Virus record (IMG/VR): IMGVR_UViG_3300023267_000005
Location: 1 to 39,868 of that record
DNA length: 39,868 nt
Strand: one strand, 5' to 3'
Source: a virus
Lineage: Duplodnaviria; Caudoviricetes
The notes under the pieces were generated by a model that saw only the letters and a program-made list of their open reading frames with translations, was not told the DNA's origin and did not search any database. The position numbers were made by a program, and so were the translations under genes. Positions 6,858 through 29,780 of the stretch are shown piece after piece. Each line of letters begins with the position of its first letter. Position 1 is the stretch's first letter.

Positions 6858-8804
6858 TCAGGTTCGGCGCGAACGGGTGAACCACCCGTTGCGCTGTAGG
6901 TCCTGCCGGTCGACGGCCGGCGCGAGCCGGTGACGGCGCGGCCGGTAGCCGGTGCCGGTCGACGGGGCCGCGCGGGCGGCTCGCTCGGCCTCGGCCTGCT
7001 CGACCAGCGACCGGCGCAACTCGCGGTTCGCCAGCGTTCCGGCGATGGCCTGGCGAGCGTCTTCCCTGCTGAGCAGAGGTGCGATGGTGTCCTCGTCGAC
7101 GAGGGCCTGGTCCTCGTCGACGTCGACCGGCACGTGGTCGCAGCGGACCTCGGCGCCGGCGCCATCGAGCAGGGTCCAGCCGTCCTCGTCGCAGAGCTCG
7201 CAGGCCTCGCGCTCGCGGTCGGCCTGCTCCTCGCGTCGACGTCGCGCGAGCGCGGCCTGGCGGGTCCGATCCTCGACGGCGGACACCCGCGACCGGGCGG
7301 CCTGCCACTCCTGGGCGGTGCGCCAGGGCAGGTCGGGGCTGTGCCGCTTGAGCGCGGCCGCGATGAACGCGTGCGGGCTGCCGACCTGGGGGCACTCGGC
7401 GAACTCGCCGCATCCGTAGGCGATGAGCTGCACGAGCTGCTCATCGGTCAGGCCCGCCATCACGTGACGGGCGATGCGCACGGCCAGCCACCGGACCTCG
7501 ACCCCCCTGCGGAGCTGCACCGGGAGGGTCGTTTTCTTGTCGTCGCGCTTTCGCTGAGGCCCGCCTAGCAGCCGCTGAGCTGCACGCTGGGGTCGTGTTC
7601 CCGCCGAACTGGACTGATTCGGACCCCGGCCAGGATCGAGCTGTTCCTCGTGTGAGCGCGGCGCAGCCGCTCCTTTCATCCACACCCCTGCCGGAAGTCT
7701 TGGAGCTACCTCTTTTCCAGGAACAGCGGAGGGGTCAGATTTCGCCGAGGAGGGGCCACCGGCGGCCGGGCCAGCAGCCTTGGCGCGTGCCTTCCCAGGG
7801 GTGCCTGCGCGGCCACGAGCGCGTCGCTGACGGGCTGTCGTCAGCTCGTCAGCGATGCGGGAACCCCACGCGGCAGCGGGCAGCACGGGGGCTTCTGGGG
7901 CCTCGGGGATGCGGAGTTCGTAGACCTGCGCCACCGCCATCACGGGGGTGTCGCGTCTCCCCTTGCGCACGGCGGGCCCGAGCTGCTCGCGCACCTCGGC
8001 CAGGTCCACCACGGCATCGGGGCCGAGCTCGTCGAGGAGCTGCTGGCGACGGCGGCCGCGCTCCTCGATGGCGGCCGCGAGGGCCAGGCGCTCCTCGCGC
8101 TCCTCGGGCCGCTCGTCCTCGGGGATCGGCAGCCGCGGCTTGTGGGTACCGGGCACGACCACGAACAGCAGGCCCTGCGCGACGAACCAGGCGATCACCG
8201 ACGTGATGTGGCCGATGGTGCAACCGGCGGCCGCGGCCAGCTCGGCGTGCGTGCAGCCGTTGCGGGTCATCGCGCCACCCTCGCGCGGGCAGGCGTTGGC
8301 GATCGTCGTCGCGACGGCGCGGTAGGTGTTCAGCCTGCGCGACTGCCAGCGCTGCACGGCCATGCGGGCCTCGATGGCGTCGAGCCAGACCTCGCGGCCC
8401 TCGAAGCAGGCCCGCGTGTTGGGCGGGGGCTGGCGCAGCATGAGCTCTTGCTGCCAGCCGACGCGACCGGCGGCCGTGTGGTGGCCGCGGGCGTCGAGCA
8501 CCACGCGGGGCATCCACCGGAGCAGGTCCCAGCGCACGCCGTGCGCCATGAGCCAGCCGTCGACCGCACCGGCCTCGTCGACGAGCTTCTCGATGCGCTC
8601 GCGGTCGACAGTTGTCGGGTCGTGGTCGGCCAGGACCACGCTGTGGGTGGTCGCGGTGTGGCCCTCGCCGAGCTGCCAATGGGCCTGGCACACGGCCAGG
8701 GCCTGGCCACCGGGGGGCGCCGGCCGCAGTTGTGCGGGTAGCCCGCAGTCCACGCACGAAAGCGGGCGTGACTCGGGCACCGATTCGGCGAATCCCGCGC
8801 CCAT
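6858..8804 (-). CDS. Putative plasmid-type replication initiator (HTH + C-terminal Zn motif)
   Basis: THAELAAAAGCTIGHITSVIAWFVAQGLL winged HTH; C-terminal CELCDEDGW...RCDH motif of the kind seen in actinobacterial Rep-like proteins; next to the kor/tra module; start uncertain. Confidence 0.6.
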   Translation of the reverse strand: MGAGFAESVPESRPLSCVDCGLPAQLRPAPPGGQALAVCQAHWQLGEGHTATTHSVVLADHDPTTVDRERIEKLVDEAGAVDGWLMAHGVRWDLLRWMPRVVLDARGHHTAAGRVGWQQELMLRQPPPNTRACFEGREVWLDAIEARMAVQRWQSRRLNTYRAVATTIANACPREGGAMTRNGCTHAELAAAAGCTIGHITSVIAWFVAQGLLFVVVPGTHKPRLPIPEDERPEEREERLALAAAIEERGRRRQQLLDELGPDAVVDLAEVREQLGPAVRKGRRDTPVMAVAQVYELRIPEAPEAPVLPAAAWGSRIADELTTARQRRARGRAGTPGKARAKAAGPAAGGPSSAKSDPSAVPGKEVAPRLPAGVWMKGAAAPRSHEEQLDPGRGPNQSSSAGTRPQRAAQRLLGGPQRKRDDKKTTLPVQLRRGVEVRWLAVRIARHVMAGLTDEQLVQLIAYGCGEFAECPQVGSPHAFIAAALKRHSPDLPWRTAQEWQAARSRVSAVEDRTRQAALARRRREEQADREREACELCDEDGWTLLDGAGAEVRCDHVPVDVDEDQALVDEDTIAPLLSREDARQAIAGTLANRELRRSLVEQAEAERAARAAPSTGTGYRPRRHRLAPAVDRQDLQRNGWFTRSRRT

Positions 8805-8828
8805 TAGGCGGCTTGACCAGGAATAACG

Positions 8829-9081
8829 CGGGTCGCTGGCGAACCCGATCGGGTGAAGCTGAGCACAAACGCCACGCTTTCCGGCGTGGCGATCGAGAAC
8901 GCCTCCCGGCCTGGCAGCCGGTACAGCTACGATCGACGCACACCACTGTGAGAAGGGGTGTTCTTGTCACGATCGGGGCTGGCACCCCACATGATCGTGA
9001 CGTCGTACCTCGGGCCTCCAACCTGAGGGTGTTGCACGGTGCGGGCCCTGGGACATCTGTCCTGGGGCCCCCGTGTTTTTT
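8829..9081 (+). ncRNA. Structured rep-leader region / candidate antisense countertranscript
   Basis: Six hairpins in about 250 nt, three with CTGGC(A/G) loops; G-U pairs and a terminal U-run favour a plus-strand RNA. Confidence 0.4.
9035..9081 (+). terminator. Plus-strand intrinsic terminator antisense to rep
   Basis: cacgg..gggccc tgggaca / tgtcctg gggccc ccgtg followed by tttttt. Confidence 0.65.
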
Positions 9082-9171
9082 CTGGGACCACCTGGTCCCC
9101 CACGTTGTCCCACATTTAAGCCTCCCGTCCAGCCGCCGGCGAGGACGACACGGGCCAGCGGACGCCTCTGG

Positions 9172-10086
9172 TCACACCTTCGGTCGACTACCAGTCGGTT
9201 CTGCTGCGGTATCCGGGGTGGCTGCTGTAGACCGCGCGCGCGAGGCTTCCTCGCCGTCGTCGGGCGCCGGGACATAGGCCACGACGTTCCGCTCGGTGGC
9301 GGGGGTGACCGGCCAGGCCGCGCTCGCGTCGCGGGTGAGCTCGTAGGTCAGCGACCACCGGCGGCCGTCGCGTACCGCGACGTCGACGGCCAGCGGGTGA
9401 AGCTCGTCGAGCGGGTCGACCACGATGCGGGTCTCGACGAGCACCGGCTGCTGCTCGGGCATGGCCAGGTCTCGGGCCTCCTCGACGGTCGGAAGCCGGG
9501 TGGACACCTCGGCAGGCCAGCGCACGGGGCCGCGTTTGAGTGCCTGCTCGATGACCTCCAGGTAGCCACCTGGGCCGGTGTCCTCCTCGCCGAGTATGGG
9601 GGCCTGGTCGACCAGGTCGACCGGCAGGTAGGTCACGGTGATCTGCGCCGGCTCGCCGACGTCGGGCCCGACGATGCGACGGCGCGCGAACACCTGATCG
9701 CCCTCGTCGAGGCCGAGGGCCTGGGCGATGTCGAGCGGAGCGAACACCATGCCTCGGGTGGGGACTTCGAGCGCGGGCCACCGGCCGGAGTGCGCGTTGA
9801 ACAGGTAGCCCAGCGGGTTGCGCCTCACGACCAGCCCGAGCGGCAGCCGCTTTCGCGGCCGCCGTGGTGCCTGGGCGTAGGTGCCTGCGCGGTTGACGGT
9901 CCGCACGCGGTCCCGAGCGACCAAGACCTTGATCGCGTCGCGGACCACGCTGTCGCTCACCCCGAACCGCACGACCAGCTTGTGCACCCCTGGCAGCCGT
10001 CTGCCGACGGGAAACTCGCCCGAATCGATCAGTCCCTCGATCCGGTCGGCTATCTGCCGGTACAGGTGTTGGTCCACGGGTTCCAT
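9172..10086 (-). CDS. GntR-family (HutC/UTRA) repressor, KorSA/TraR-like
   Basis: LYRQIADRIEGLIDSGEFPVGRRLP...FGVS..VVRDAIKVL...GTY GntR HTH plus UTRA-like C-domain; divergent from the tra operon as in Streptomyces kil-kor systems. Confidence 0.9.
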   Translation of the reverse strand: MEPVDQHLYRQIADRIEGLIDSGEFPVGRRLPGVHKLVVRFGVSDSVVRDAIKVLVARDRVRTVNRAGTYAQAPRRPRKRLPLGLVVRRNPLGYLFNAHSGRWPALEVPTRGMVFAPLDIAQALGLDEGDQVFARRRIVGPDVGEPAQITVTYLPVDLVDQAPILGEEDTGPGGYLEVIEQALKRGPVRWPAEVSTRLPTVEEARDLAMPEQQPVLVETRIVVDPLDELHPLAVDVAVRDGRRWSLTYELTRDASAAWPVTPATERNVVAYVPAPDDGEEASRARSTAATPDTAAEPTGSRPKV

Positions 10087-10098
10087 CCCCTCCTAGGG

Positions 10099-10148
10099 TA
10101 TCTGTGTGCCCACAGAGCTTGACATCTATGTGCACACAGATACAACAT
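10099..10148. promoter_or_regulatory. Divergent kor/tra promoters with two palindromic operators
   Basis: tatctgtgtgcccacaga (10099-10116) and atctatgtgcacacagat (10124-10141); plus-strand TTGACA 10119-10124; minus-strand TTGTAT-N18-CAAGCT. Confidence 0.75.
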
Positions 10149-10320
10149 ACCCGGAGAAGATCACCCGAACAACAGACGATCAAGGGGCCTGAGCTGGATC
10201 TGCGGTCCAGCCCAGGCCTGGCAGCACCGTCGCGCTAACGAACGGAACCGCCATGCGTAGTACTACACCCCAGTCGATCACCGAGGTACGCACGGATGAG
10301 GTCACGAGCAGGTGGTCTCG

Positions 10321-10548
10321 ATGAGCCAGCACTCGCTGCCGCCCAGCCACTGGCCAGCGCCACCGCTGTGGACCGTCGCGGCCGCCGTCGTCGCGCTCGT
10401 GCTGCTGTGGCTGCTCGGCAAGGCCCTGTCCCGCCGGATGGGCTGGACCGGCGGCCAGCTCGCCAGCTACCTGACCTCGGTTACGTGCGCGTGGGCGCTG
10501 GTCCTGCTCGTCGGGTACTGGCTGTGGATCAGGGAGGGCGGCCGGTGA
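10321..10548 (+). CDS. Small two-TM membrane protein (Spd-like, transfer operon)
   Basis: Two hydrophobic helices; AGGTGG RBS; first substantial gene of the tra operon. Confidence 0.7.
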   Translation: MSQHSLPPSHWPAPPLWTVAAAVVALVLLWLLGKALSRRMGWTGGQLASYLTSVTCAWALVLLVGYWLWIREGGR

Positions 10549-11003
10549 CCTTCCCTCCCGAGCCCCCGACGTTCACCACGTTCCCCGCCAACCAACTGAT
10601 CTGGGTGCAGCTCACCGAGGGCAGCGAGGTGCGGCACCCGATCGCCTCACTGGAGCTGCCCAACGGCCGGACGGCCATCCACCCCGTCTCGTACCCGGCC
10701 CTCACGACCGGGGTCGTGCGGGCCGTTCATAGCTTGATGGACCAGTGGTTCGTCACCGACCTGCCGACCGGCAGGCTGCTGCCGGTGCTGTCGCTGAGCC
10801 CCAGTGCGGCGAGGGCCACCGCCGGTAGCTGGCAGCACCACGTGACGCGGGGGCTGCTGAACCCCCACAGCACCGATCACGTAATGGCCTGGGCCCAGGC
10901 GTTCGTCGCCCGAGCAGCCAGGTTCGACAGCGAGGTGCGGGCCCACCTGATCGGCGACATGCAGTGGCCCCCGTACCTACCCCCCAGCCCGTACACGAAC
11001 TGA
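10545..11003 (+). CDS. Hypothetical protein (transfer operon)
   Basis: GTG 10545 coupled to the upstream stop (GTGA), GGAGGG RBS. Confidence 0.7.
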   Translation: MTFPPEPPTFTTFPANQLIWVQLTEGSEVRHPIASLELPNGRTAIHPVSYPALTTGVVRAVHSLMDQWFVTDLPTGRLLPVLSLSPSAARATAGSWQHHVTRGLLNPHSTDHVMAWAQAFVARAARFDSEVRAHLIGDMQWPPYLPPSPYTN

Positions 11004-11016
11004 GGAGCAAGCCGAG

Positions 11017-12381
11017 ATGACGACGGACCTGCTGCCGCTCACCGACCCGCGCGCCCAGCGCAAGGTCGCAGCGGCACGCGCGGCGGCTATCCGACAGGAC
11101 AGCGAGGCCGCGGCCGAGCTGGCACGTGTCCGCATCGCGGGTGAGGAAAGGCTGATCGAGGCGAACCTCGACGCGGCCACCGTGGCCAACCACGAACTCA
11201 TGCTGGCGGCCTCGCACCAGGAACGGCTACGCGCTCAGGAGCTGCGCGAGGCCCTGCCCGCGGACCAGGTCGACCAGGTCGACGAGGGGAGGCTGGCCCT
11301 GTCCCCCGCGCGCTTGAAGTGGTGGCACCGGGGCCTACTCGCCTTCACCCTCGTTGTGATGGCGCTGCTGTTCTCGATCATCGTCGTGACGCAGCTCGAT
11401 TTCTACCGGCAGCTCGACGGCCTACAGCCCAAGCTCGGCGGCATCCCGATCCGGATCTACCTCGCCATCCCGGTGGCCACCGAGATGCTCTCGCTGCTCT
11501 ACGGCGCGTTCGCTACCTACTGCCTGTACGCCGGCCGAGGGAACCACTCGAAGTACGTCCGGTGGATGTGGATCTATGCGTCGATCGCCGCAGTGGTGAA
11601 CGCGTCCCACGCGCTGACGCACCTCGCCGCGGGCGACGCCGGGCTCACGGCGTTCGTGCTGGGTGGCGGGTCGCTCGCGTCGCCGGGCGCGTGGCACGCG
11701 TTCATCGGGACCACGCTGGGCAAGCAGCGTGGCCGGCGCGGTGGCGTCAAGGGCCTCGCCCGTGGCGCCCGGATGGTGAAGCACCCGTTCCTCACGCGGC
11801 GGTTCCTGTGGGCCTGCGAGGTGTTCCCGGACCTGACTCACGACGAGGTGTGGGCGATGGTCGCGGGTGCCAAGCGCGCGCGGCTTGAGCGTAAGTACCG
11901 GCCGGCGGTGAAGACCAAGGCGTCCAAGACGGCCAAGGTCGAGACGGCCAAGTGGTGGCCGCGCCGGGCCGAGGCCAAGGCCGAGGCGTCCAAGCCGGTT
12001 GTCGTCGAGGCGTCCAAGGCCAAGGCCGAGGCGTCCAAGCCGGCCAGGGTCGAGGCGTCCAAGCCGGTCGAGGCCGAGGGCCAGGCGGCCAAGGTCGAGG
12101 CGTCCAAGCCGACCGAGGCCGGTCCGGAAACCGAGGGCGAGCAGACGCGGCCCATGCCCCGGATCGTCGAGGACCTCCCCGAGAACTGGGCAGCGATCGT
12201 CGCCGAGGGTGTGCGCTGCGCAGACGAGCACATGGGCGGTGTGGTGACCGGCGCCGGCAAGCGCGACGAGCTCGCGGCGCTGGTCCGGAGGAGCCCCGAG
12301 CTGGCGTTCCCGAACAAGGCCCGGACGCGCCTCCAGCAGGACGTCAAGCAACAGCTACTGGAGAGGCAGGCAGCAGCATGA
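11017..12381 (+). CDS. Multi-pass membrane protein, Spd/DUF2637-like spread protein
   Basis: About 4 TM segments (...AIPVATEML...ASIAAVVNASH...) followed by EASK(P) repeats; GAGGAG RBS; upstream of traB. Confidence 0.65.
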   Translation: MTTDLLPLTDPRAQRKVAAARAAAIRQDSEAAAELARVRIAGEERLIEANLDAATVANHELMLAASHQERLRAQELREALPADQVDQVDEGRLALSPARLKWWHRGLLAFTLVVMALLFSIIVVTQLDFYRQLDGLQPKLGGIPIRIYLAIPVATEMLSLLYGAFATYCLYAGRGNHSKYVRWMWIYASIAAVVNASHALTHLAAGDAGLTAFVLGGGSLASPGAWHAFIGTTLGKQRGRRGGVKGLARGARMVKHPFLTRRFLWACEVFPDLTHDEVWAMVAGAKRARLERKYRPAVKTKASKTAKVETAKWWPRRAEAKAEASKPVVVEASKAKAEASKPARVEASKPVEAEGQAAKVEASKPTEAGPETEGEQTRPMPRIVEDLPENWAAIVAEGVRCADEHMGGVVTGAGKRDELAALVRRSPELAFPNKARTRLQQDVKQQLLERQAAA

Positions 12382-14051
12382 GCGCGTTCCCCGAGCCGTC
12401 CGTCGAGGAGCTCCTGGCGGCCGCGCCCCACGACGAGCCGGTGGCCGTCGACGGGCAGGACGTCGAGGTCGACCTCGACGAGGAAGACGGCGTGCCGGTC
12501 CAGCGGCTGGTGCTCTACGCCGGCCCCCCTGCCGCCGTTGCCGCAGGTCTGGGCCTGTTGTCGCTGTCGGTGTGGTGGCTGCTCGCGGCCGCCGGGCTGG
12601 CCCTGGTGCTCGTGCTGGTGTGGCTGCGTCGGGACCAGCTCGTCGCGTGGCTGCGCGGCGAGTCGGGCGGGGAGCGCAGGGCTGCCCGCTACGCCGGCCG
12701 TGCGGCGGCCGCGGAGTCTCGCGGCCGCGGCGAGTCCCGCACCAAGCAGCGCGCGGCCAGGCGCGCGGCACGTGCCAAGGCGCTGGGCTCCAGCGCGGTC
12801 GACCGGCCCAGCCGCGGGCAGCGCAAGACGGCGCGGGCCGCGGGCCGCGAGGCTGCGCGGGCGACGCGGGCCGCGGGTGGTTCACGCAAGCAGGCCCGCG
12901 CGGCCAAGCGCGCGGCCAAGGCCAAGGCGATGGGTGCCGGCGCCCGGTCCAGCACCGGCAAGCCAACCCGGAAAGCGGCCAAGCGCGCGGGCCAAGAGGC
13001 CGCCAAGCGGGCCAAGGCCAAAGGGGCCTCGCGTCCAAAGCAGCGCGCGGCCAAGCGGGCAGCGCGGGCCAAGGCGATGGGACAAACGGCCAAGCGCGCG
13101 TCCAAGACCAAGGGGCCAAGCGGTCGGGCCAACGCGTCCAAGGCGTCCAAGCGGGCCAAGCCGGTTGGCCCGGCCAACCGGTCGCGGTCGGAAGGCACCG
13201 GCGGGCCAAAGGCCAACTCGGCGGCCGAGCGGGCCAAGGCCGCGGCCAAGGCGGCCAGGCGGGCCGAACGGGCCAAGCGGCGCCAGGCCAAGCAGGACCG
13301 GCGCGAGAAGCGACGCCAGGTCAAGGCCGAGGCCAAGGCCGCGCGGCCGCCACGCCGGATGCCGCCGGTGCTGCTGCGGGCCAAGGCCAGGCTCGGCAAT
13401 GCCGCGTACGCGGTCGGCCAGGGCGTGGCGTCCTACACCGGGTGGGGCGTGCGCAAGGCCGTCGACGACGCGCTCGGCGTGGCCGCGTACGTGGCGGACA
13501 AGGCCGCTGAGGTCGAGGCCAAGTACAAGGATCGGGCCGCGGCCGAGGAGGCAGCGCGGGCCGAGCGGGCCGAGATCGACGCGCGGGCCGCGGCCAAGGC
13601 CGAGAGCAGGCGGGCCAAGCGGGCCGTGCCCGCTCCCCTGCCCAGCGTTCCGGCGGGAACCACCCCGCGGGCCAAGACCAAGGCGCCGGCGTCCAAGCCG
13701 GTGACCGTGCCCAAGGCAGGCAGCAGCACGTCCAGCACAGGAGGCAAGGCCATGTACGAAGAGATGATCGACAAGTCCACGCCGGAAACGCTGTCCAAGA
13801 CGTTGCAGGCGGCCGCCGATTCCGCGCGGGCCGAGGGCCAGCGCAAGCAGGACCTCGCCGACGAGCTGCGCAGCCGCGCGGCGATGCTCGAAGGGAAGAA
13901 GGCCTACGAGGAGCGCGCGGCCGAACACCTGCGCGAGGCCGGGGCGGCCGAGGAGGACGCAGAGAATGCGTTCATCTGGGCTGCCGAGTGGCAGGCCGAT
14001 GCCGATGCGGCCAGGTCGGACCTGCCTCACGTTCTCGAAGCCAGCCGCTAG
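12378..14051 (+). CDS. Membrane-anchored Lys/Arg/Ala-rich protein (TraA-like position)
   Basis: ATGA coupling at 12378; two TM helices; histone-H1-like KAAK/RAAR repeats; acidic helical C-terminus with its own in-frame RBS and ATG at 13752. Confidence 0.7.
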   Translation: MSAFPEPSVEELLAAAPHDEPVAVDGQDVEVDLDEEDGVPVQRLVLYAGPPAAVAAGLGLLSLSVWWLLAAAGLALVLVLVWLRRDQLVAWLRGESGGERRAARYAGRAAAAESRGRGESRTKQRAARRAARAKALGSSAVDRPSRGQRKTARAAGREAARATRAAGGSRKQARAAKRAAKAKAMGAGARSSTGKPTRKAAKRAGQEAAKRAKAKGASRPKQRAAKRAARAKAMGQTAKRASKTKGPSGRANASKASKRAKPVGPANRSRSEGTGGPKANSAAERAKAAAKAARRAERAKRRQAKQDRREKRRQVKAEAKAARPPRRMPPVLLRAKARLGNAAYAVGQGVASYTGWGVRKAVDDALGVAAYVADKAAEVEAKYKDRAAAEEAARAERAEIDARAAAKAESRRAKRAVPAPLPSVPAGTTPRAKTKAPASKPVTVPKAGSSTSSTGGKAMYEEMIDKSTPETLSKTLQAAADSARAEGQRKQDLADELRSRAAMLEGKKAYEERAAEHLREAGAAEEDAENAFIWAAEWQADADAARSDLPHVLEASR

Positions 14052-14059
14052 CCGAACCC

Positions 14060-14099
14060 GAGGGGGCCACACGTGCAGGTGTGGCCCCCTCACCTGCAC
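14060..14099 (+). promoter_or_regulatory. Hairpin with an alternative pairing in the traB leader
   Basis: gagggggccacac/gtgtggccccctc 13-bp stem; competing gtgcaggtg/cacctgcac 9-bp stem. Confidence 0.5.
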
Positions 14100-14117
14100 A
14101 GACACGAGAGGAACACC

Positions 14118-16280
14118 GTGAAGTTCCAACACAAGACGGTGATCGTCATTACGGCAGGCGCGGCCACCCTAGCGCTCGGCGCGGCTGCCCGGTTCTTCGT
14201 GGTGGGCCCGCTGCTCGCTGCCCCCATCGCCGCGGTGGTGCTGCTCGTGGGTCGCGCGCTGGTGGTCAACGCGGTGCACTCCGGACATGCGTTCGGCGCC
14301 TACCCAGGTGCCAGCCAGCAGGACGCCATCGTTCGATGGCTGACCATCGCGGGCCTGTGGCGCGCGGTCCTGCTCGTGGTGCTGGCCTGGCTGCCGGAAC
14401 TCGCGCTGCTCCTGGTGCTCGTGCTGCTCGCCATGACGTGGGTCGAGTACATGCTCGTCGACCTGCTCAAGCGTGGCATCGCCACGGTGAAGGCCGCGCC
14501 GGTCGAGGACCGGGCCCTCGTCGCGGGCGAGCTCGTGCGGGCCCCCGCGACGAGGGTGCAGCAGCTCGCACAGCAGCGTTTCGGCACCGTGCTGGGCTCG
14601 GCCGGGTACCCCTACCTGCACATCACCGGCACGCAGCGGCTCGGCCCGGACCAGCAGCTCTACAAGGTCCAGGTGCCCTCACGGGTGCTCGCCGAGCAGC
14701 AGGCGGCCGAAGCTGCCATCGCCGCAGGCCTATCCCCCGGTAAGCAGCGGTTCCTCCCGTTCAGCGAGGCCTCGGCCGAGTCGATCGCCATCTCCCTGGG
14801 CGAGAAGCTCGGCCGCCCGTTCCCGCGGGACGGGGTGATCGTGCAGCAGACCCCCAACGCCGGCGAATACGACGTCATCGTGATGACCAGGAACGTGCTC
14901 GCCAGCATCCTGGTCTACGAGGACGACCTGACCAGGCCTCGTCGCGCGACCGACCCTGCCGACCTGGGCCGCTACGTCGAGGGCACCCAGTGGCTGGTGC
15001 CGCTCGGGCACGTCGAGATCATCGCCCAGTCGGGCGCCGGTAAGACGAACCTGCTGTTGCAGCTCGTGGCCCACTACAACGCGTGCGGCCACGTGCCGGA
15101 CGGGGTCCTCGACCTGACCGGGTTCGAGGACCTCGGGCCCGACGACCAGGTGGTGGTCTGGATCGGCGGCCGCCGCAAGCAGTACGAGACCTGGGGCGCC
15201 TACCTGCTCAAGTACATGAACACCCAGCACGAGATTCCCATCGACCTGCTCGTGAACGGCCAGCACGACACGGTGAACATGCTGCTCGCCGGGATGCTCG
15301 CGGTGCAGGAGCGGCAGGCCATCCCCCACGACGAGCGCGGCGCGCTCCCCCACATCGCCATCGTGATCGACGAGTACCAGGACGTCGCGGTCGACGACTC
15401 GGTGACGGTCCCCTGGCAGGGGGTCGACTGGACGGCCTCGATGCTCGACGCGGCGATCAGCCGCGGTGGCAAGTCCGCGCGCGTGCACCTGGTCCGGCTC
15501 ATGCACGATGCCGTGAAGACTGCGGCAGGCACGCGCGGCGCCCAGATCAAACGCGCGTTCAACGTGACGATCATGCTGCGCAGCAACGATCGGGCGGACG
15601 CCGGTCGGGCAACCGGCGCGTGGCGGGCCAAGGGGCCCGAACACGAGGGCGAGGCGCTCGTGACGACCAAGGGCAGCGTCGCGCGCAGGGCCAAGGCCAA
15701 GTACATGCAGGAGATCAATAAGCCGACCGCACCCCAGACCGGTGGCATCACCGTGCCCGAGGTCGGCTGGGCGCGGCGCAACATGGTGAGCAGGCTCGAC
15801 GTCCGGACCGCGAACGCCTGTGGTGACTGGTACGCGGCGCGGCACCGGTACATGACGGTCGAGTTCCGCGACTACCTGCGAGGTGTCGCCCCTGCCGCAG
15901 AGGCGTCGACGTCGACTGGCCACCCCTCGGCGACGTCGAGGGCCGACCGGGTGCGGGCCGAGGCGCGCGCCTCGATCGACGCGGCACTCGGCCGGACGTC
16001 GACCACCACGGCGGTCGCGCCCGTGGTGGTGGCGCCGGTGGCGGTGGCCGCGCCGGTGGCCAAGCGGGCCACGCTGCGAGACCGGACCCTCGCCGCGCTG
16101 CGCGAGGCCGAGGGGGCCGAGGTCGGCCTCGACCAGCTCGTGCAGCAGCTCGGCCTCGACGAGGGCGGCAAGCGGTCCTTGCAGAACCTGCTGACCGCGC
16201 TCGTGAAGTCCGAGACGATCGAGCGTCCCGAGGGCACGACCGGGGTCTACCGGCTGGCTGCCGCGCGGGTCCTCACCTGA
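14118..16280 (+). CDS. traB: TraB-like FtsK/SpoIIIE dsDNA translocase (actinomycete conjugation)
   Basis: N-terminal TM helices, Walker A AQSGAGKT, Walker B IAIVIDE, C-terminal winged helix; GTG 14118 with GAGAGGA RBS. Confidence 0.85.
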   Translation: MKFQHKTVIVITAGAATLALGAAARFFVVGPLLAAPIAAVVLLVGRALVVNAVHSGHAFGAYPGASQQDAIVRWLTIAGLWRAVLLVVLAWLPELALLLVLVLLAMTWVEYMLVDLLKRGIATVKAAPVEDRALVAGELVRAPATRVQQLAQQRFGTVLGSAGYPYLHITGTQRLGPDQQLYKVQVPSRVLAEQQAAEAAIAAGLSPGKQRFLPFSEASAESIAISLGEKLGRPFPRDGVIVQQTPNAGEYDVIVMTRNVLASILVYEDDLTRPRRATDPADLGRYVEGTQWLVPLGHVEIIAQSGAGKTNLLLQLVAHYNACGHVPDGVLDLTGFEDLGPDDQVVVWIGGRRKQYETWGAYLLKYMNTQHEIPIDLLVNGQHDTVNMLLAGMLAVQERQAIPHDERGALPHIAIVIDEYQDVAVDDSVTVPWQGVDWTASMLDAAISRGGKSARVHLVRLMHDAVKTAAGTRGAQIKRAFNVTIMLRSNDRADAGRATGAWRAKGPEHEGEALVTTKGSVARRAKAKYMQEINKPTAPQTGGITVPEVGWARRNMVSRLDVRTANACGDWYAARHRYMTVEFRDYLRGVAPAAEASTSTGHPSATSRADRVRAEARASIDAALGRTSTTTAVAPVVVAPVAVAAPVAKRATLRDRTLAALREAEGAEVGLDQLVQQLGLDEGGKRSLQNLLTALVKSETIERPEGTTGVYRLAAARVLT

Positions 16281-16368
16281 CTCACTCACTCACGCACTCA
16301 CACGGGGAGGGGCCCCATACGTGCAGGTCAAACCCCCTCCCCCTGGTGTGAGTGCGTGAGTGTGTGAG
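16281..16368. repeat. Inverted repeat of (T/G)CAC tetramers; candidate clt (cis-acting locus of transfer)
   Basis: ctcactcactcacgcactcacac (16281-16303) versus its reverse complement at 16346-16368 (1 mismatch); inner ggggagggg/cccctcccc; begins immediately after the traB stop. Confidence 0.6.
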
Positions 16369-16420
16369 CGGCCGGCCAGTCGCCTTGACCCCCCTACTTG
16401 AGCAGAGGATCGTGATCCGG

Positions 16421-16732
16421 ATGACCCCCGAAACGCTTCAGGCCCTGGTGACGCTGGCCGGCTGGGCCGTGTTCATCGCCCTGGTGGTGCGCGGCGCCAG
16501 CACGCGGCTCGGCGTGCCGTTCAGCGAGGCCGCGCAGAGGATCAGCGTGATGGTCGGCGTGCTGGCGTTCATCGGCGTCATGCACGCGCTGTCGGGCTGG
16601 CTGGCCGGGCTGCTGGTCGCCGGCGTGGCGCTGGTGCTGTACGCCACGCTGGTGGTGATCGCCCTCGTGTGGCCCACCGAGGACCAGCCCGTCGACGAGG
16701 CCGCGCCTCGGCGCGTCGGGGCACGCACCTGA
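16421..16732 (+). CDS. Three-TM small membrane protein
   Basis: Three hydrophobic helices; upstream TTGACC-N17-GATCGT would give a leaderless ATG at 16421 (alternative GTG 16412). Confidence 0.7.
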   Translation: MTPETLQALVTLAGWAVFIALVVRGASTRLGVPFSEAAQRISVMVGVLAFIGVMHALSGWLAGLLVAGVALVLYATLVVIALVWPTEDQPVDEAAPRRVGART

Positions 16733-17109
16733 GCGCGCAGCAGCTCGTCGACGACCAGGCCCTCGCCGCTCCCAGCGGTGAGGGCCTGGTCGTCAGTGAC
16801 GATCGCCGCGCGGCCCTGCTGGCGGTCAGCGTCGCGCTGGTGCGGCAGCAGGTCACCGGCCGGAACGGGCGGACGCGGCGACGTGGCGCGGTCCACGACA
16901 TCGAGCTGCGCGACTGGTTCGGCGTGCCGGTGCCGGTGCCGGCCTGCCACGTGGGCACCGGCGGCTGGGACTTCACGCGGCTGGTGCCGACCCCCGACGT
17001 GGTGACCTGCCGCCGGTGCCTGCGCGCCGGTGCTGGGCGAGCTGCTCCCCCGCCGGTCGACCTGCCACCTGGCCAGCTCGCGCTCGACCTCGACCAGCTC
17101 GGCCCCTGA
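16669..17109 (+). CDS. Small putative Zn-binding protein; true start probably near 16729
   Basis: H...C...CRRC motif; C-terminal QLALDL; ends just before the terminator. Confidence 0.6.
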   Translation: MAHRGPARRRGRASARRGTHLSAQQLVDDQALAAPSGEGLVVSDDRRAALLAVSVALVRQQVTGRNGRTRRRGAVHDIELRDWFGVPVPVPACHVGTGGWDFTRLVPTPDVVTCRRCLRAGAGRAAPPPVDLPPGQLALDLDQLGP

Positions 17110-17115
17110 ACGCGA

Positions 17116-17149
17116 ACGAGGCCCCCGCACCGAAGTGCGGGGGCCTCGT
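17116..17149. terminator. Probable bidirectional terminator between the convergent tra and recombinase operons
   Basis: Perfect 15-bp stem acgaggcccccgcac / gtgcgggggcctcgt; cUUCGg loop on the minus strand. Confidence 0.8.
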
Positions 17150-17275
17150 CGTGTTCCCCGCCGATGCGGGGTCCAGTCCCGCCAGCGCGGGAAAGGTAGT
17201 GCTGGTGCCTGCTCGGTGAAGCATCGAGGCGGGCCACCCCCGAGTGCGCGCGGGGAGACGTTCATCCTGCCACGG

Positions 17276-17500
17276 TCACCCCTTGGGCTTCCACTTCTCC
17301 TGGCGCTGGGCGCAGTCCTCGGCGGTGTGCACGGGGACCAGGTCCTCGCCCCCGAAGAGGGCCAGGCCCTCGTCGTCGACGTCGGGGATCAGCGCGGACC
17401 AGCCGCACGTCGAGCAGCCGATCGAGCTGATCATCTCGCTGCGTCCGCGGCTGCACACTCGCATGTGGTCGCGGTGCAGCTTGGGCGCGGCCGCCGTCAC
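17276..17500 (-). CDS. Small Cys/His-rich hypothetical protein
   Basis: GTGA-coupled to the recombinase stop; CSTC...H...C. Confidence 0.6.
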   Translation of the reverse strand: MTAAAPKLHRDHMRVCSRGRSEMISSIGCSTCGWSALIPDVDDEGLALFGGEDLVPVHTAEDCAQRQEKWKPKG

Positions 17501-18615
17501 AGGCCCATCCGCCCAGCCGCGTTGTGCGTCCAGAGCTCCTCGAACCGGATGTACTTCTTCACCGTGTCCGCCGAGGTCCACCGGCCCTGGATCATGATCT
17601 CGATCAGGGACGCGCCACCGAGGTGCGCGGCCGTTGCGCCACCGGCGCGCAGGCTGTGGCCGGACCACCCTGCCTTGCCCAGGCCCGCGCGAACGGCCCC
17701 CGCCTTGATGAGCCGATCGATGTCGATGCCCTCGGGGTGCAGCGTGCCGGCGCCGATCCGGTCGCCTCGCGGGGTGATCGGTCGCAGCAGGGGACCGCTG
17801 GTGGTGTCGTGGCCCTGCTCGGCGAGCAGGGCCAGCCACCGCTCGTAGTAGCCGAGCGGGTCGGTCAGCGGGTCGTTACCGCGGGGAACCGCGACCGTCG
17901 CCCCCCTGTTGCCCTTGTCGGTCTTGCTGGTCGGCAGCCACAGCGACAGCCCCCGGTCGGACCGGGTGACGTGCTCCAGTCGCATCGCGGCCAGTTCGCT
18001 GCGGCGCAGCATCCCAGCCACCCCGAGTACGAGGGCCAGGCCGTCGCGGGTCGCGCGTGCCGGACCGGGCGGGGGCGTCCTCAGGATCATGCGCAGCGAG
18101 GGCACGGTGAGCGGGGTCGCGCGCTTCACCTGCCGTGAGCCGGCGTTGGCGCGGTAGCCGACCAGGACCTTGCGGGCGAGGTGGGTTTGCGGGTCGCCCT
18201 CGTACCGGTGCTCGGTGTGCAGCCGCTTCACCGCGGCAATGCCCTGCTCAATCGTCGAGGCGCCAATGCTGGCGTTGGCCAGCTCGGTGGCCCACTGGGC
18301 CAGGGTCTCGCCGGTGGCCGGTGCGCCATCGATGCCGGACCGGCGGCCGCGGGTCCGGCACCACGGCACCCAGGCCAGCTCGGGCCACACTCCTTTGGCC
18401 AGCCGCTCGGGCTCGCCGGGTTCCGTGAGGACCTTGCCGAGCAGCAGCCGCCGGTAGGCACGCGTGGTGTTCGCCGGGATCGCCGCGGCGATCAGGTCCC
18501 ACGCGGCCTCGTCGAGCTGATCGTCGACACCTGGCTGGTGCTGCGAGGGCACGGCCAGGTGGCGGCCGCCGTCGACGACCAGCTCGCCGTCGAGCACCGG
18601 CACGAGGTCGGTCAT
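17497..18615 (-). CDS. Cre-like tyrosine site-specific recombinase (resolvase type)
   Basis: NTTRAY N-domain; catalytic R (LRRSE), K (SKTD), HSLR, GRW (Trp as in Cre) and Y (VKKYIR); ATG 18615 coupled to the upstream stop. Confidence 0.9.
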   Translation of the reverse strand: MTDLVPVLDGELVVDGGRHLAVPSQHQPGVDDQLDEAAWDLIAAAIPANTTRAYRRLLLGKVLTEPGEPERLAKGVWPELAWVPWCRTRGRRSGIDGAPATGETLAQWATELANASIGASTIEQGIAAVKRLHTEHRYEGDPQTHLARKVLVGYRANAGSRQVKRATPLTVPSLRMILRTPPPGPARATRDGLALVLGVAGMLRRSELAAMRLEHVTRSDRGLSLWLPTSKTDKGNRGATVAVPRGNDPLTDPLGYYERWLALLAEQGHDTTSGPLLRPITPRGDRIGAGTLHPEGIDIDRLIKAGAVRAGLGKAGWSGHSLRAGGATAAHLGGASLIEIMIQGRWTSADTVKKYIRFEELWTHNAAGRMGL

Positions 18616-21668: not shown

Positions 21669-21708
21669 GTTTAGATGTTCGATAAGTCACGTTATCGAAC
21701 ATCTAAAC
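21669..21708. other. lox/dif-like tyrosine recombinase core site (17-bp perfect arms, 6-bp spacer)
   Basis: GTTTAGATGTTCGATAA-GTCACG-TTATCGAACATCTAAAC; asymmetric spacer; AT-rich in a GC-rich genome. Confidence 0.75.
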
Positions 21709-21738: not shown

Positions 21739-21963
21739 CTAGTCGGCTCCTGTCGGCTCCAGTCGGTTCGCCTCCTGGTAGGCGAGGACCGACCGGGCCC
21801 AGATCCGGACCGACCGACCGACGCGGTAGGACTCCAGTTTTCCGGCTGCTCGGAGCCGCTCGACGGTGCGCTCGGAAATGCACAGGAGGCGCGCGACTTC
21901 CGCTGTGGTGTGGCTCTGGATGTTCGCCTCGCTCGGGGTGCGAGGTCGTCCGGCCTTGGCCAT
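21739..21963 (-). CDS. Excisionase-family (HTH_17) DNA-binding protein
   Basis: TTAEVARLLCISERTVERLRAAGKLESYRVGRSVRI; GAAAGGAG RBS. Confidence 0.85.
   Translation of the reverse strand: MAKAGRPRTPSEANIQSHTTAEVARLLCISERTVERLRAAGKLESYRVGRSVRIWARSVLAYQEANRLEPTGAD
21741..21770. repeat. Three tandem 10-bp direct repeats
   Basis: agtcggctcc tgtcggctcc agtcggttcg, about 30 bp from the core site. Confidence 0.6.
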
Positions 21964-22096: not shown

Positions 22097-22420
22097 TCAG
22101 GCCGCAGGCGGCGCCGGGTAGGTGGGCTGGGACTGGGAGCCGAGGAGCACGAGGGTCACCAGCCGCACCACAGCCGCGGCGACGTCGGGCGGCAGGAACC
22201 CGAGCAGCTTGGGCAGGTGGATCTCGACCAGCCGCACCACGGCGTACACCGCGGTGCTGACGACGGCCAGGGCCGCGACGACAACCGCGGCCAACCAAGC
22301 CGGGTCCTGGAAGGTGGCGACGGCGTCGGCGAACAGGCCTCGACCCGCGAGCCACGCGGCCACCGCACCCCACACGTACGGCACGCCGGTGCGGACCACG
22401 CTCAGCACGAAAGCGAGCAC
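22097..22420 (-). CDS. Putative holin
   Basis: Small multi-TM protein (VRTGVPYVWGAVAAWLA...YAVVRLVE...LLG) directly after the endolysin. Confidence 0.75.
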   Translation of the reverse strand: MLAFVLSVVRTGVPYVWGAVAAWLAGRGLFADAVATFQDPAWLAAVVVAALAVVSTAVYAVVRLVEIHLPKLLGFLPPDVAAAVVRLVTLVLLGSQSQPTYPAPPAA

Positions 22421-22462
22421 AGGAGATCTCCTAGTTCTGTCCGTTGTGGACTGAGGGGCTGG

Positions 22463-23317
22463 CTAGGGCTGGACCGCGAGCCGCTCGCGCTCGCGGCGGT
22501 CGGCCTCGTCGTTGACTCGCCGGGTCATCAGCTCGGCGAACGCGGAGAGCTTCTCGTCGGGGATGCCCTGGAGCAGCGGCGCGAGGGCCTGCGCGAGGTG
22601 GTCCTCGTCGACGTCGACGGCCGGGCGGCCGAGCAGCGCGTCGAGCTTGCGGGAGTTGCCGCGCTCCAGGAGCTGCACCTCGACGAGGCGATCGATGATG
22701 GACTGGTCACCCTGCGAGCCGCCCTTGTAGTAGATGGCGGCGTGGGTGCTGAGCAACGCGTTTCGTTCGTCGGGCTGCAACTCGTCCTCCTGGGTGAGCT
22801 GGCCGCTTGCGACGGCCGGGATGATGTCGTTTCGGAGCTGGCTGTTGCGGGTCTCGCCGGGGCACTGCCGCGGCCCACCCGCCCAGGGGTCCGGGAACCA
22901 GTTGTGCCCGCCGATGCCCCCGCCGTTCCACGACGTGGCCGGGCCCTTCCGGACGCCGTGGGTGTCGCACACCCACGCGGCCAGCCTCTTGCAGGCCGCG
23001 ACCATCTCGGCGTTCCAGCCGAGCAGCGGGTTCCGGTTGCTGTCGTCCCACGTCTCGACGCTGATCGCGAAACCGTTGGCGTACATGTTCGCGTCGGCCC
23101 GAACGTTGGTGTCGACGAACTGGTAGATCACGCCGGTACGGCCGATGTAGAAGTGGGACTCGACCTCGACACCGGCCGAGTTCCAGTACTCCCGGAGCGA
23201 GTCCGCAGAGGACACAGCCTCGTGGAAAATCAGCGTGGTGGGATCGATCTCTCCCTGGCTGTACGTCTCGGGGATGAGCTGCTGGACCGCGAACGGGCAG
23301 ATAGCCACGGGGGTCAC
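22463..23317 (-). CDS. Endolysin, N-acetylmuramoyl-L-alanine amidase (Amidase_2 type)
   Basis: IFHE...SHFYI...N..AISVET...GH...CPG Zn-amidase motifs. Confidence 0.9.
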   Translation of the reverse strand: MTPVAICPFAVQQLIPETYSQGEIDPTTLIFHEAVSSADSLREYWNSAGVEVESHFYIGRTGVIYQFVDTNVRADANMYANGFAISVETWDDSNRNPLLGWNAEMVAACKRLAAWVCDTHGVRKGPATSWNGGGIGGHNWFPDPWAGGPRQCPGETRNSQLRNDIIPAVASGQLTQEDELQPDERNALLSTHAAIYYKGGSQGDQSIIDRLVEVQLLERGNSRKLDALLGRPAVDVDEDHLAQALAPLLQGIPDEKLSAFAELMTRRVNDEADRRERERLAVQP

Positions 23318-23583
23318 CCTCCCTTGGTTAGGAGCGCAACCACGTAGCTGGCAACGCCCGATGATGTGACGGTGAACAGACCGACCGCGAGCGCGGCGCG
23401 AAGGGTCACGCCCTGGCGGACGTCGTCGGACTTGGAGTTCTGCAATTCCCGGACGTCGTCCTCGACGTGGCCCAGGCGGACGCCGTGCTCGGCGGTCCGC
23501 TCGCCGTACATGCGCAGCTCGCCGAGCACCTGGCCGAGTTGGGCCTCGATGCGTCCGAACGAATGCGCCACATACTCATCCAC
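23314..23583 (-). CDS. Small coiled-coil + C-terminal TM protein (lysis-cassette membrane protein)
   Basis: RIEAQLGQVL coil and a C-terminal hydrophobic helix; coupled to the endolysin start. Confidence 0.7.
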   Translation of the reverse strand: MDEYVAHSFGRIEAQLGQVLGELRMYGERTAEHGVRLGHVEDDVRELQNSKSDDVRQGVTLRAALAVGLFTVTSSGVASYVVALLTKGG

Positions 23584-23601
23584 AGCGGGCCTCCCAGCGG
23601 G

Positions 23602-24516
23602 TCACGCGTCGCTCACCCACGTGACCGAGATTCGGGTCGACCGCTCGAAAGTCGACAGGTTCAGGTTGCCGCCGGTGCTCTGGAGACAGGAGATCGAGAA
23701 GCTGTCGCCGATGTTGAAGTGCTGCGACGCGGAGACGTTCACCGATGCCGGGTCCGACGTGAACGTGGTGCCGTTCTGCGCGGCCAGGCGAATCGAGTTG
23801 GTGTTGTCCCGGATGGTGGAGAACAGGTTGGCGCCGGTGGTGAACGGCGCAAACGTCGTGGTGGCGGAAATGTCGTACGTTCCCGCGCGCCGGATGGTGA
23901 AGTCCGTGTTCCCTGTCCCAGTGACCTCGACGTCCGACGTCGTCGACGTGCTGGCGTCGAACTTCACCTTGGTGAACACGCCTGTTCCGGTCGGAATCGA
24001 CTGCGCTACCGACTGGTAGAACTGCGCGCTACCGCCGGCGTCGCCGACTCGCCGACGCAAGTCGCTGACCTTGCCCGCGGCGATCGTCACAGACGGGGAC
24101 GGGTCGACGATCACCTTGGCGAGGTCGATCTCCCAGATATCGCTGCCTTGGGTCAGCGGCCAGAGCGCAGGGCTTCCGGACGCCGTGCCCTTCAAGACGT
24201 CGAGCTCGATCAGGTCGTTCTCGAAGTCCGCGCGGAGGATCACCCGGTCCCACCGGGTCAGGGTGGCGTGTGGCGTCTGGATCGGGAGGATCTTCTCGGC
24301 GAGCGACTCGCCCCAGTGCCCTTGAATCCAGCACTCGCCGGTGCCGACCTTGACCTGTAGCCCCGAACTGTCTGCGTACACCCGAAACTGGTTCGCCGTG
24401 TTGGCGAGAACTCCCGTTGCCAGAGGGTGGCGCATGAACTTGCGCCAGGTGTCCTCTGTGGAGTCAGCGCCGGGGCCGGTGGCAAACGGTGCGAATGTGT
24501 CCAGCGTGGTGGCCAC
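23602..24516 (-). CDS. Minor tail protein / putative receptor-binding protein
   Basis: GLQVKVGTG.CWIQGH...RWDRVILR baseplate-attachment-type N-domain, beta-sandwich C-terminus; tail synteny. Confidence 0.75.
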   Translation of the reverse strand: MATTLDTFAPFATGPGADSTEDTWRKFMRHPLATGVLANTANQFRVYADSSGLQVKVGTGECWIQGHWGESLAEKILPIQTPHATLTRWDRVILRADFENDLIELDVLKGTASGSPALWPLTQGSDIWEIDLAKVIVDPSPSVTIAAGKVSDLRRRVGDAGGSAQFYQSVAQSIPTGTGVFTKVKFDASTSTTSDVEVTGTGNTDFTIRRAGTYDISATTTFAPFTTGANLFSTIRDNTNSIRLAAQNGTTFTSDPASVNVSASQHFNIGDSFSISCLQSTGGNLNLSTFERSTRISVTWVSDA

Positions 24517-24519
24517 GAA

Positions 24520-25647: not shown

Positions 25648-25669
25648 TGCTGGGGCCTCGCCCTCTCGA

Positions 25670-26521: not shown

Positions 26522-26527
26522 TGCGGC

Positions 26528-29215: not shown

Positions 29216-29235
29216 GCCGGACCTCCGATTTCAGG

Positions 29236-29436
29236 TCAGGCGGTCGGGTTTGCTTCGAGCCGGTCGAGGTGGCGGTCGACCATGTCCCTGCACAGCAGGT
29301 AGTCGCCGATGCTCAGGCGGCCGATCTCGTAGGGAGGCAGGTGCCACAGGTCCAGGAACCAGGGCTTGTAGAACCTCAGCTCTTGGGTGAGCCAGATCCG
29401 GTGGTGGCGCGCGGCGCCACCTTCTGGGGAGGGTCC
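29236..29436 (-). CDS. Tail assembly chaperone C-terminal extension (gpT-like, -1 frame; not in the ORF track)
   Basis: The -1 frame reads ...RIWLTQELRFYKPWFLDLWHLPPYEIGRLSIGDYLLCRDMVDRHLDRLEANPTA*, has no upstream start/RBS of its own, and stops 20 nt before the TMP start. Confidence 0.7.
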   Translation of the reverse strand, partial: GPSPEGGAARHHRIWLTQELRFYKPWFLDLWHLPPYEIGRLSIGDYLLCRDMVDRHLDRLEANPTA

Positions 29437-29780
29437 GGCGCCTCACCCTCCCCGGTCTCGACCTCGGGGGACTGGTCGCGGCCGAGGTCGACCTCGACGC
29501 GGAAATCCCGCCAGCGCAGCAGGTTCCACTCCTCGTCGATCCAGTTGATTTCCTCACCGGCCTTGGTGCGGGCGAGCCAGCAGAACGCCTTGACCGCGAC
29601 AGCCGCGCGCCGGTCGAACTGGTCGCACAGGTAGGGCCACGGGACGGCCGCGGTCCTCTCCAGCAGGATCGACTCGTCGAGGGTGATCTCGTAGAAGTCG
29701 AGATCGACCACGCGGCCGCCACCGAGGTGGAACTTGTAGACCAGGGTCGCGGGCTCGCCGGTGTTCGTCTTGGTGCTCAC
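29376..29780 (-). CDS. Tail assembly chaperone (gpG-like)
   Basis: Between the tail tube/neck genes and TMP; acidic C-terminus with GGACCCT candidate slip site. Confidence 0.8.
   Translation of the reverse strand: MSTKTNTGEPATLVYKFHLGGGRVVDLDFYEITLDESILLERTAAVPWPYLCDQFDRRAAVAVKAFCWLARTKAGEEINWIDEEWNLLRWRDFRVEVDLGRDQSPEVETGEGEAPDPPQKVAPRATTGSGSPKS

Follow-up and report, generated by a model that had tools for sequence, protein, structure and literature searches.

A compact tailed phage carrying a TraB-type transfer backbone: a probable conjugative plasmid prophage

We analysed the whole of the virus record IMGVR_UViG_3300023267_000005 (39,868 bases; Caudoviricetes), called the window below, in which a siphovirus-type virion module shares one genome with a Rep-like gene, a GntR-UTRA repressor gene and a divergent operon of membrane proteins that contains a TraB-type ATPase gene and a candidate clt site. 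Our data suggest that the window is a conjugative plasmid prophage predicted to pump its own double-stranded DNA by a TraB-type system, and we put the probability of this reading at about 0.6. The first-pass annotation had proposed it, and it is supported by gene order, protein fold, phylogeny, the conservation of the operators and of the clt-like arrays, and a relative that forms a circular contig in an isolate genome. A recombinase with its candidate site and the pump operon in conserved order indicate that the window likely lives as a plasmid. The dual plasmid-phage concept is known from pZL12, a larger cultured phage that is reported to spread both between hyphae and in virus particles, and what is new here is a compact variant of that kind.

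Results

Relatives with the same gene order

The search for relatives that the first-pass annotation had suggested found three with the gene order of the window. The first (G001) is a virus record of 43,849 bases with a 141-nt direct terminal repeat, rated 100% complete. The second is contig 34 of Lentzea sp. NBRC 102530, which has 42,988 bases and a 127-nt terminal repeat and belongs to a 9.5-Mb isolate assembly. The third (L076) was seen over 22,058 of its 42,760 bases, its head genes and ends lying outside that stretch. In all of them the Rep-like gene, the GntR gene, small genes, two membrane genes, the ATPase gene, the clt-like array and a further membrane gene are followed by the recombinase gene, the Xis-like gene and the lysis and tail genes. 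Identity to the three relatives is 36-48% for the ATPase, 38-56% for the Rep-like protein, 50-61% for the GntR-UTRA protein, 45-64% for the recombinase and 60-82% for the Xis-like protein. The terminase, portal and capsid proteins of the window have no real match in G001 or in the Lentzea contig, whose own share 54-61%. Therefore, the backbone outlasts swaps of the head genes, and the finding of one order in two relatives with different head genes means that the window is no chimera.

The named near matches belong to Pseudonocardia and Lentzea, thus the host is likely a filamentous soil actinomycete of the family Pseudonocardiaceae. The ATPase profile matches 13 of 201 genomes of this family at 1e-30, and four of the 12 matching genomes besides Lentzea were examined (G189, G126, G113 and G044). 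The contigs G189:C4 and G126:C1 are plasmid-like and carry relaxase genes.

The ATPase belongs with actinomycete transfer proteins

The first-pass annotation had described an FtsK-like ATPase with a transmembrane anchor and a winged helix, and profile searches, an AlphaFold2 model and hydropathy agree on this. A single-sequence Pfam search gave no FtsK match, single-sequence searches returned nothing from plasmids, phages, viral contigs or species genomes, and the protein searched alone retrieved only two relatives besides itself; its link to known proteins therefore needs profiles. Searched against 1.84 billion proteins, a profile of three sequences matched 271 at 1e-3 and 102 at the stricter 1e-30. 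The GK of Walker A and the E of Walker B are invariant in an alignment of 76 rows (the window protein and 75 near-full-length matches), and the profile built from these 76 sequences matches EccC (2e-13), FtsK (2e-9) and TcpA (1e-3). FtsK motors are also the best structural match (2.6e-14) of the AlphaFold2 model, whose mean confidence (pLDDT) is 89. Four hydrophobic helices lie within residues 8-114 at the N-terminus; the C-terminus is modelled as a helix-helix-helix-strand domain, and its profile matches winged helix-turn-helix chains at E values of ~1e-3.

A tree of 44 motor domains, with a midpoint root and long branches, places the window ATPase in a clade of eight rows (support 100/99). 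The tree does not include pSVH1, a Lentzea row that lacks Walker A, or seven family rows that were dropped as duplicates or to save computing time. The clade branches with pZL12 gp071 (97/91) and then with the transfer proteins of pJV1 and pWTY27 (96/90), and the chromosomal FtsK of Lentzea and three EccC domains fall outside this branch. The ATPase thus does not cluster with the non-conjugative ATPases, a grouping that the first-pass annotation would have counted against transfer.

The candidate clt and the repressor operators

The clt named in the title of the first-pass annotation corresponds to real, clustered CACTCAC arrays directly after the ATPase gene: two inverted arrays of CACTCACN units (Table 1). 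Five of the six CACTCAC copies of the window lie within 16283-16362, and the clt-like arrays hold 5/5 copies in G001, 3/3 in the L076 stretch and 5/9 in the Lentzea contig, while 200 Markov shuffles gave at most two copies per 100 nt. Over the whole window the motif occurs at chance level (6 against 7.0), so what is significant is its clustering alone, and a search for dispersed use in the manner of KOPS saw none. The build of the arrays is kept in the non-phage contig G189:C4 and, in a CAAA version, in G126:C1; none is evident in G113 and G044. In the literature, clt is described as short direct and inverted repeats beside tra (PMC3583192, PMC4447253). A separate 14-bp inverted repeat around GTGCAG stands at 14059-14092, shortly before the start of the ATPase gene, a position at which G001 and L076 have similar hairpins; TGCAG(G) recurs in the clt spacer.

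The repressor gene is divergent from the transfer operon, both of its Pfam domains were matched and repeats lie between the two, which agrees with the first-pass annotation. The repeats form a pair of operators: in 4/4 elements 16-bp palindromes occur at 24-bp spacing together with TTGACA, and the sequence of the palindrome differs in each element (the -35/-10 readings were made by eye). TraR, a GntR protein, binds repeats ahead of its operon (PMC4447253, PMC3583192). A diverged copy of the pair fronts a leftward operon of small genes on the phage side. A search allowing up to three mismatches found only these four sites in the window and none in five Markov controls, and 6810-6849 lies inside a contig of the metagenomic run X1 that covers 6530-7850, with no difference among those listed. 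The second pair was sought in G001, the Lentzea contig and L076 and was not found there. At its position G001 has, after the Rep-like gene, a Phd/YefM antitoxin-like gene (6689-7159) with no toxin partner noticed, and at the position of this Phd gene the Lentzea contig has a perfect palindrome (about 23295-23330).

A Cre-like recombinase with a lox-like site

The first-pass annotation overlooked a tyrosine recombinase gene, an inverted-repeat site and an excisionase-family gene. The profile of the recombinase has Cre as its best solved match (1e-15, against 0.006 for XerD). The protein also aligns at 28% identity over 95% of the length of SCP2.07c, which we infer to be mrpA; MrpA of SCP2* resolves multimers (PMC3218068). 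Each element holds one lox-like core, whose arms agree at 16/16 positions in the window and L076, 13/16 in G001 and 10/16 in Lentzea, and no such core arose in 200 shuffles. The site lies 3 kb upstream of the recombinase gene in the window and 0.4 kb in Lentzea, and a similar repeat is found where the recombinase gene starts in SCP2* and in G189:C4. Elsewhere the Lentzea genome contains no copy with a matching spacer, and its single further near match differs in the spacer; the G113 and G044 stretches contain no lox-like core. To judge by sequence, a Cre-family enzyme with one symmetric site per replicon would make up a resolvase system of the Cre/MrpA type, and thus the pair points to a plasmid prophage.

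Metagenomic cover

Eight runs, all from leaf litter, hold part of 8500-18400, three of them more than half of it; the run with the best cover may be the sample from which the record came. The run data are contigs, and four runs were compared (X5-X8 hold small shares). All 30 bins between 5001 and 25000 are covered in each of the four, at a summed depth of 2.8-8.4 in X1 and X2, and the 15 joints listed across this stretch each rest on 22 nt or fewer. At the left end a contig of X2 runs 120 letters past position 45, so the molecule goes on there. A form that is only integrated, which the first-pass annotation had considered, is not what the close relatives show, since both G001 and the Lentzea contig were assembled in circular form.

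The putative replication initiator and its leader

The Rep-like gene is the sole initiator candidate among the open reading frames (ORFs) scanned, and a Pfam scan of the window ORFs gave no match to RepSA, RepAM or Prim-Pol. Its protein matches PHROG 3171 "replication initiation protein" weakly (3e-4) and unnamed Atlas clusters. The predicted fold is a generic winged helix-turn-helix (best Z 8.6, root-mean-square deviation 2.9, 85 aligned) from a poor model (pLDDT 58), for which Foldseek gave no PDB match at 1e-3 and three weak viral HTH matches. A full-length homologue (2e-110) stands beside parAB on the closed plasmid pAS20800. The profile matches 11 of 401 genomes; the nine copies fetched lie on contigs of 17-296 kb. 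Four of these have a GntR or FtsK-like gene nearby, and the phage structural genes queried gave no match on any of the nine.

The leader of this gene shows 70% column identity in an alignment of four sequences, with one hairpin invariant and the other carrying a few compensatory changes, although four sequences are too few to prove a structure. It has no Rfam match and is a sequence-based candidate for copy-number control or an origin. In the runs X1 and X2 the Rep-like gene is present as a variant at 7196-8375, where 35 of the 40 differences listed fall (5001-25000, at least 40 in all), with 16 amino-acid changes in 31 codons; this is possibly an allele swap that alters incompatibility.

Other genes of the transfer operon

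None of the plus-strand genes received a name from Pfam, PHROGs or NCBIfam. The Spd and TraA labels of the first-pass annotation agree with position, but HMM scans gave no family-level match. The product of 11017-12381 is likely a DUF2637/SpdB-like spread protein: as a lead, its Atlas feature score is 0.92 to clusters with 14-27% DUF2637, and DUF2637 occupies its position in pWTY27, SCP2* and G113. The following protein would, by its position, be a TraA-like partner; its build is repeated at the same place in L076, G001 and pZL12 gp072. Repeats at 11899-12121 and 12735-13700 encode Ala/Lys-rich low-complexity tracts in these two membrane partners, and the relatives have other repeats at the same positions.

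The ATPase gene does not close the plus-strand run, as had been assumed, because the clt, a three-helix membrane gene and a Cys-containing gene come after it on the plus strand. The Cys-containing protein lacks a membrane helix, and its Lentzea copy stands on the opposite strand behind the recombinase gene; therefore it is probably not a transfer gene. The hairpin beyond it is likely a terminator.

Genome layout and the virion module

The ORFs named by the first-pass annotation are open and have a high GC content at third codon positions. Nearly all genes lie on the minus strand, the single plus-strand run being 10321-17109, and GC is flat at 0.64-0.76 (about 70% overall). The siphovirus module had been recognised correctly: terminase, portal, protease, capsid, adaptor, tail tube, tape measure, Dit, endolysin and holin-like genes were found on the minus strand within 22097-39440, PHROGs and Pfam also matched minor tail genes, an amidase endolysin and an HNH gene, and the virion and lysis gene set is complete. 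No tail sheath was matched in the gene scans of the window, and the module is siphovirus-type by sequence. In keeping with the proposed relaxase-free layout without a type IV secretion system (T4SS), neither a relaxase nor a T4SS was matched among the window ORFs scanned with Pfam, PHROGs and NCBIfam. A tRNA-Arg call at 34341-34430 was taken as false because it is antisense within the capsid gene, and no credible tRNA fragment was found in the window.

Several details of the phage part may be recorded here. A tail-fibre-like gene (1054-2166, minus strand) stands outside the structural operon, directly before the HNH gene, as it does in G001; its Lentzea relative comes after the holin. Two overlapping ORFs lie ahead of the tape measure gene (29231-29780, minus strand), where tailed phages commonly encode a frameshifted tail chaperone. 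The window opens with a 35-nt poly-G, and at its other end 39760-39868 holds two direct repeats with TGACCTGCGGTTATG and G-runs, adjoining the gene at the small-terminase position; this looks like a packaging region, the contig breaking within a G-run.

Table 1. Features of the window, with strand and basis or remark
Feature	Position	Strand	Basis or remark
Second operator pair, diverged copy of the kor/tra pair	6810-6825 + 6834-6849	.	fronts the leftward phage-side operon starting at 6788
Putative replication initiator, 648 aa	6858..8804	-	winged helix at ~residues 135-300
Conserved Rep leader	8805..9085	-	two hairpins (9043-9070, 8870-8891)
GntR-UTRA repressor (Kor/TraR type)	9172..10086	-	Pfam GntR 6e-14, UTRA 1e-10
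Operator pair flanking TTGACA	10101-10116 + 10125-10140	.	between divergent kor and tra
Small two-helix membrane protein	10321..10548	+	hydropathy; 56% over 39 aa to L076
152-aa soluble protein	10545..11003	+	no Pfam, PHROG or NCBIfam match; also in G001, L076
Membrane protein (likely DUF2637/SpdB-like)	11017..12381	+	no HMM match
One-helix membrane protein, long Ala/Lys/Arg-rich middle, helical C-terminus	12378..14051	+	sequence, hydropathy; no family match
TraB-type FtsK-fold ATPase, 720 aa	14118..16280	+	membrane-anchored motor with a winged helix at the C-terminus
Candidate clt, two inverted arrays of ~8-bp units, about 45-bp spacer	16278..16370	.	starts at the traB stop
Three-helix membrane protein after clt	16421..16732	+	hydropathy; 86% to L076
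Conserved Cys-containing soluble protein	16669..17109	+	58-76% identity in three relatives
16-bp hairpin between convergent tra and recombinase operons	17115..17150	.	similar hairpin in L076
Cre-like tyrosine recombinase	17497..18615	-	PHROG 1, 1e-14
lox/mrpS-like site, 16-bp perfect AT-rich inverted repeat	21670..21707	.	6-bp asymmetric spacer
Excisionase-family (Xis-like) HTH gene	21739..21963	-	HTH_17 1e-10, TIGR01764 2e-10
Siphovirus packaging, head, tail and lysis module	22097..39696	-	PHROG and Pfam matches

Discussion

Comparison with known systems

The first-pass annotation had named as a larger precedent pZL12/phiZL12 (NC_013420; Zhong et al. 2010, via PMC3583192, PMC4487206 and PMC7157519), a conjugative plasmid-phage of Streptomyces, and our comparison confirms the same layout at 90 kb. 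Like the window, pZL12 has tailed phage genes, a divergent GntR gene (gp080), a membrane protein (gp073), a low-complexity protein (gp072), the FtsK-type gp071 that joins the window's ATPase family in the tree, and a tyrosine recombinase akin to that of the window (30% over 173 aa). It differs in its size (90.4 kb against 39.9 kb), its own ParAB and its Streptomyces host; only the recombinase and Dit match the window by tblastn, with no match for Rep, GntR, TraB or the head genes, and neither a CACTCAC array nor a lox-like core was found in it. Transfer of pZL12 requires a tra gene and two neighbours (PMC3583192), pSLE1 is syntenic with it (PMC4487206), and it has been termed a singleton (PMC7157519).

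The Streptomyces plasmids with TraB, clt, TraR and Spd (pSVH1, pJV1, pWTY27, pIJ101, pSG5 and SCP2*) share with the window the membrane anchor, FtsK motor and winged helix of the ATPase, the divergent GntR gene with repeats before the operon, and short repeats beside traB. In contrast to them, the window has a distinct ATPase subfamily that stays below the Pfam FtsK cut-off and has a His sensor, a clt made of two inverted arrays, and a full virion module attached. In the 14-kb conjugative plasmid pWTY27 itself, the transfer locus is followed by a gene annotated as a phage major capsid gene (L079:10642-12102). From P1 Cre/loxP and from MrpA, whose likeness to the recombinase was given above, the window differs in its 6-bp spacer, its 16-bp arms and the Xis-family gene that adjoins the site.

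The plasmids pGBA129-24a and pAmyja1 and the phage PIS 136 have ATPase relatives beside tail, lysis or other phage genes, in the same large branch of the tree; however, they measure 59-95 kb and belong to other subclades. The literature searched does not describe any of the three as conjugative. An ATPase relative beside phage genes is found on the closed plasmids pGBA129-24a and pAmyja1 and on that of NBC_01259.

Proposed course and points against it

We infer the plasmid state, the activity of the Rep-like protein, binding of the repressor, recognition of clt and transfer of the window element from the comparisons above. The element would be maintained as a circle in a host of the Pseudonocardiaceae, in the state of a plasmid prophage. 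After infection the recombinase, to go by its likeness to Cre and MrpA, would act on the lox-like site and so hold the genome as a monomeric circle, and the winged-helix protein, given its position and plasmid homologues, would start replication. A GntR-UTRA dimer may bind the two kor/tra palindromes and thereby hold down both its own gene and the transfer operon, the latter being released on a signal. The ATPase would act as a membrane-anchored hexamer whose C-terminal winged helix reads the CACTCAC arrays, so that the circle is translocated into neighbouring hyphae or compartments in the manner of Streptomyces TraB plasmids, and the membrane partners, as pSVH1 suggests, may aid spreading in the mycelium. 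The lytic module, known here from its genes, would make virions and thereby provide a second route.

A number of observations weigh against conjugation from a plasmid state. On profile scores alone TraB cannot be told apart from EccC or FtsK: the family scores 2e-16 to 3e-6 with proven TraBs, 2e-13 to 3e-11 with EccC and 2e-10 with chromosomal FtsK, and the TraB of pSG5 gave no match listed at E 10. The pIJ101, pSG5 and SCP2* proteins lie elsewhere in the tree on long branches; therefore, TraB is not one clade among these 44 domains. In the motor, the sensor Gln is replaced by His in 9/9 aligned members of the window's subgroup, the first Gly of Walker A by Ala, and the canonical Arg finger is absent, with Thr at its column. 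T7 gp4 uses His as a sensor, and the TraB of pJV1 likewise lacks the Arg in the same alignment, thus the canonical Arg finger may not define TraB. The Rep-like protein, which has a winged helix and plasmid homologues, does not match a characterised Rep, as comparison with pZL12 gp082, SCP2.14c and the Rep candidates of pWTY27, pJV1 and pSG5 showed. A sigma-70 scan found no promoter in 6700-17600, the kor/tra gap included, and no ParA-type Walker motif was found elsewhere in the window. An Xis-family gene is present, and two relatives, in G113:C6 (427 kb) and at the end of G044:C1 (8.57 Mb), are phage regions within large contigs that may be integrated. As for the read mapping suggested by the first-pass annotation, cover is unbroken across the tra/virion stretch, but no read joins the two ends of the window, and no single contig in the four runs spans the tra and virion halves. 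The G044 region also carries, between its lysin and ATPase genes, a pair of a DddA-like deaminase and an Imm1 immunity protein (L039:7628-8775).

Alternative explanations

One may argue that the element is a plasmid prophage whose TraB/clt pump works mainly within one mycelium, where it would carry copies through septa and to the spores and so substitute for ParAB, and not in mating. The absence of a ParA motif from the window, set beside the ParAB of pZL12, fits this; the TraB and Spd proteins of pSVH1 act in intramycelial spread (PMC4447253), and virions already provide a route between colonies. However, transfer of pSVH1 and pIJ101 between strains depends on this same protein and requires no other (PMC4447253), and the layout of the window matches the non-phage elements G189:C4 and G126:C1. 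We give this alternative roughly one chance in five, and the intramycelial and between-strain roles do not exclude each other.

It is improbable that the window is a hybrid of a prophage and an actinomycete integrative and conjugative element (AICE), in which the recombinase and the Xis-like protein would integrate the element into a site of the host, Rep and TraB becoming active only after excision. Recombinase, Rep and Tra together are the working definition of an AICE (PMC3218068), AICEs of the pSAM2 and pMEA300 type resemble the window in combining these with an Xis-like gene, and distant relatives with phage genes do sit in large contigs. In contrast to AICEs, the window has a Cre-type enzyme with a short symmetric site and a full virion module, and its close relatives assemble as circles. 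Additionally, the one other near match to the site in Lentzea has a different spacer, the G113 and G044 stretches lack the core, and there is no credible tRNA fragment in the window.

At least as improbable is a degenerate or repurposed TraB, kept as a membrane tether, for superinfection exclusion or in slow decay, by which no DNA would be pumped. The His, Ala and missing Arg of the motor speak for it. However, the GK of Walker A and the E of Walker B are invariant in all 76 aligned members, the subgroup has the His throughout, the TraB of pJV1 also lacks the Arg in the alignment, and the reading frame, the clt and the operators are kept at 36-48% protein identity.

An assembly that wrongly joined a phage to a plasmid, which the metagenomic origin of the record, its poly-G start and the lack of a contig across the junctions might suggest, has practically no likelihood given the same order in three independent assemblies, the flat GC and the unbroken cover (30/30 bins in four runs, with joints listed on 22 nt or fewer), so that the chimeric joins considered in the first-pass annotation are ruled out.

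Returning to a conjugative plasmid prophage, the repressor of conjugation could double as the prophage switch: a copy of the Kor operator pair precedes the phage-side operon, which leads in the direction of the HNH and packaging genes, and the window ORFs scanned did not include a CI-type repressor. One GntR-UTRA protein with one ligand would then choose between quiescence, DNA pumping to neighbouring hyphae and virion production. We hold this idea to be doubtful.

Meaning

In one paper phage-plasmids and conjugative plasmids are handled as separate types (PMC12282955). A survey of phage-plasmids sought conjugation via relaxase and mating-pair genes, and its main text contains neither Streptomyces nor ZL12 (PMC7969092); surveys based on such genes therefore cannot see TraB systems. 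No published description of the family was found in the open text searched, and the supplementary phage-plasmid lists of the same survey may hold related replicons.

The family described here combines both kits at half the size of pZL12, in another actinomycete family, and keeps them stable across swaps of the head module. Three cis-acting sites (the candidate clt, the operators and the lox-like site) are mapped and conserved in 4/4 elements, and one member is present in a deposited strain. The Rep-like gene, the clt and the Cre-like pair could serve as small vector parts for Pseudonocardiaceae. Why a phage keeps a second, particle-free route has thus become a question that can be tested directly.

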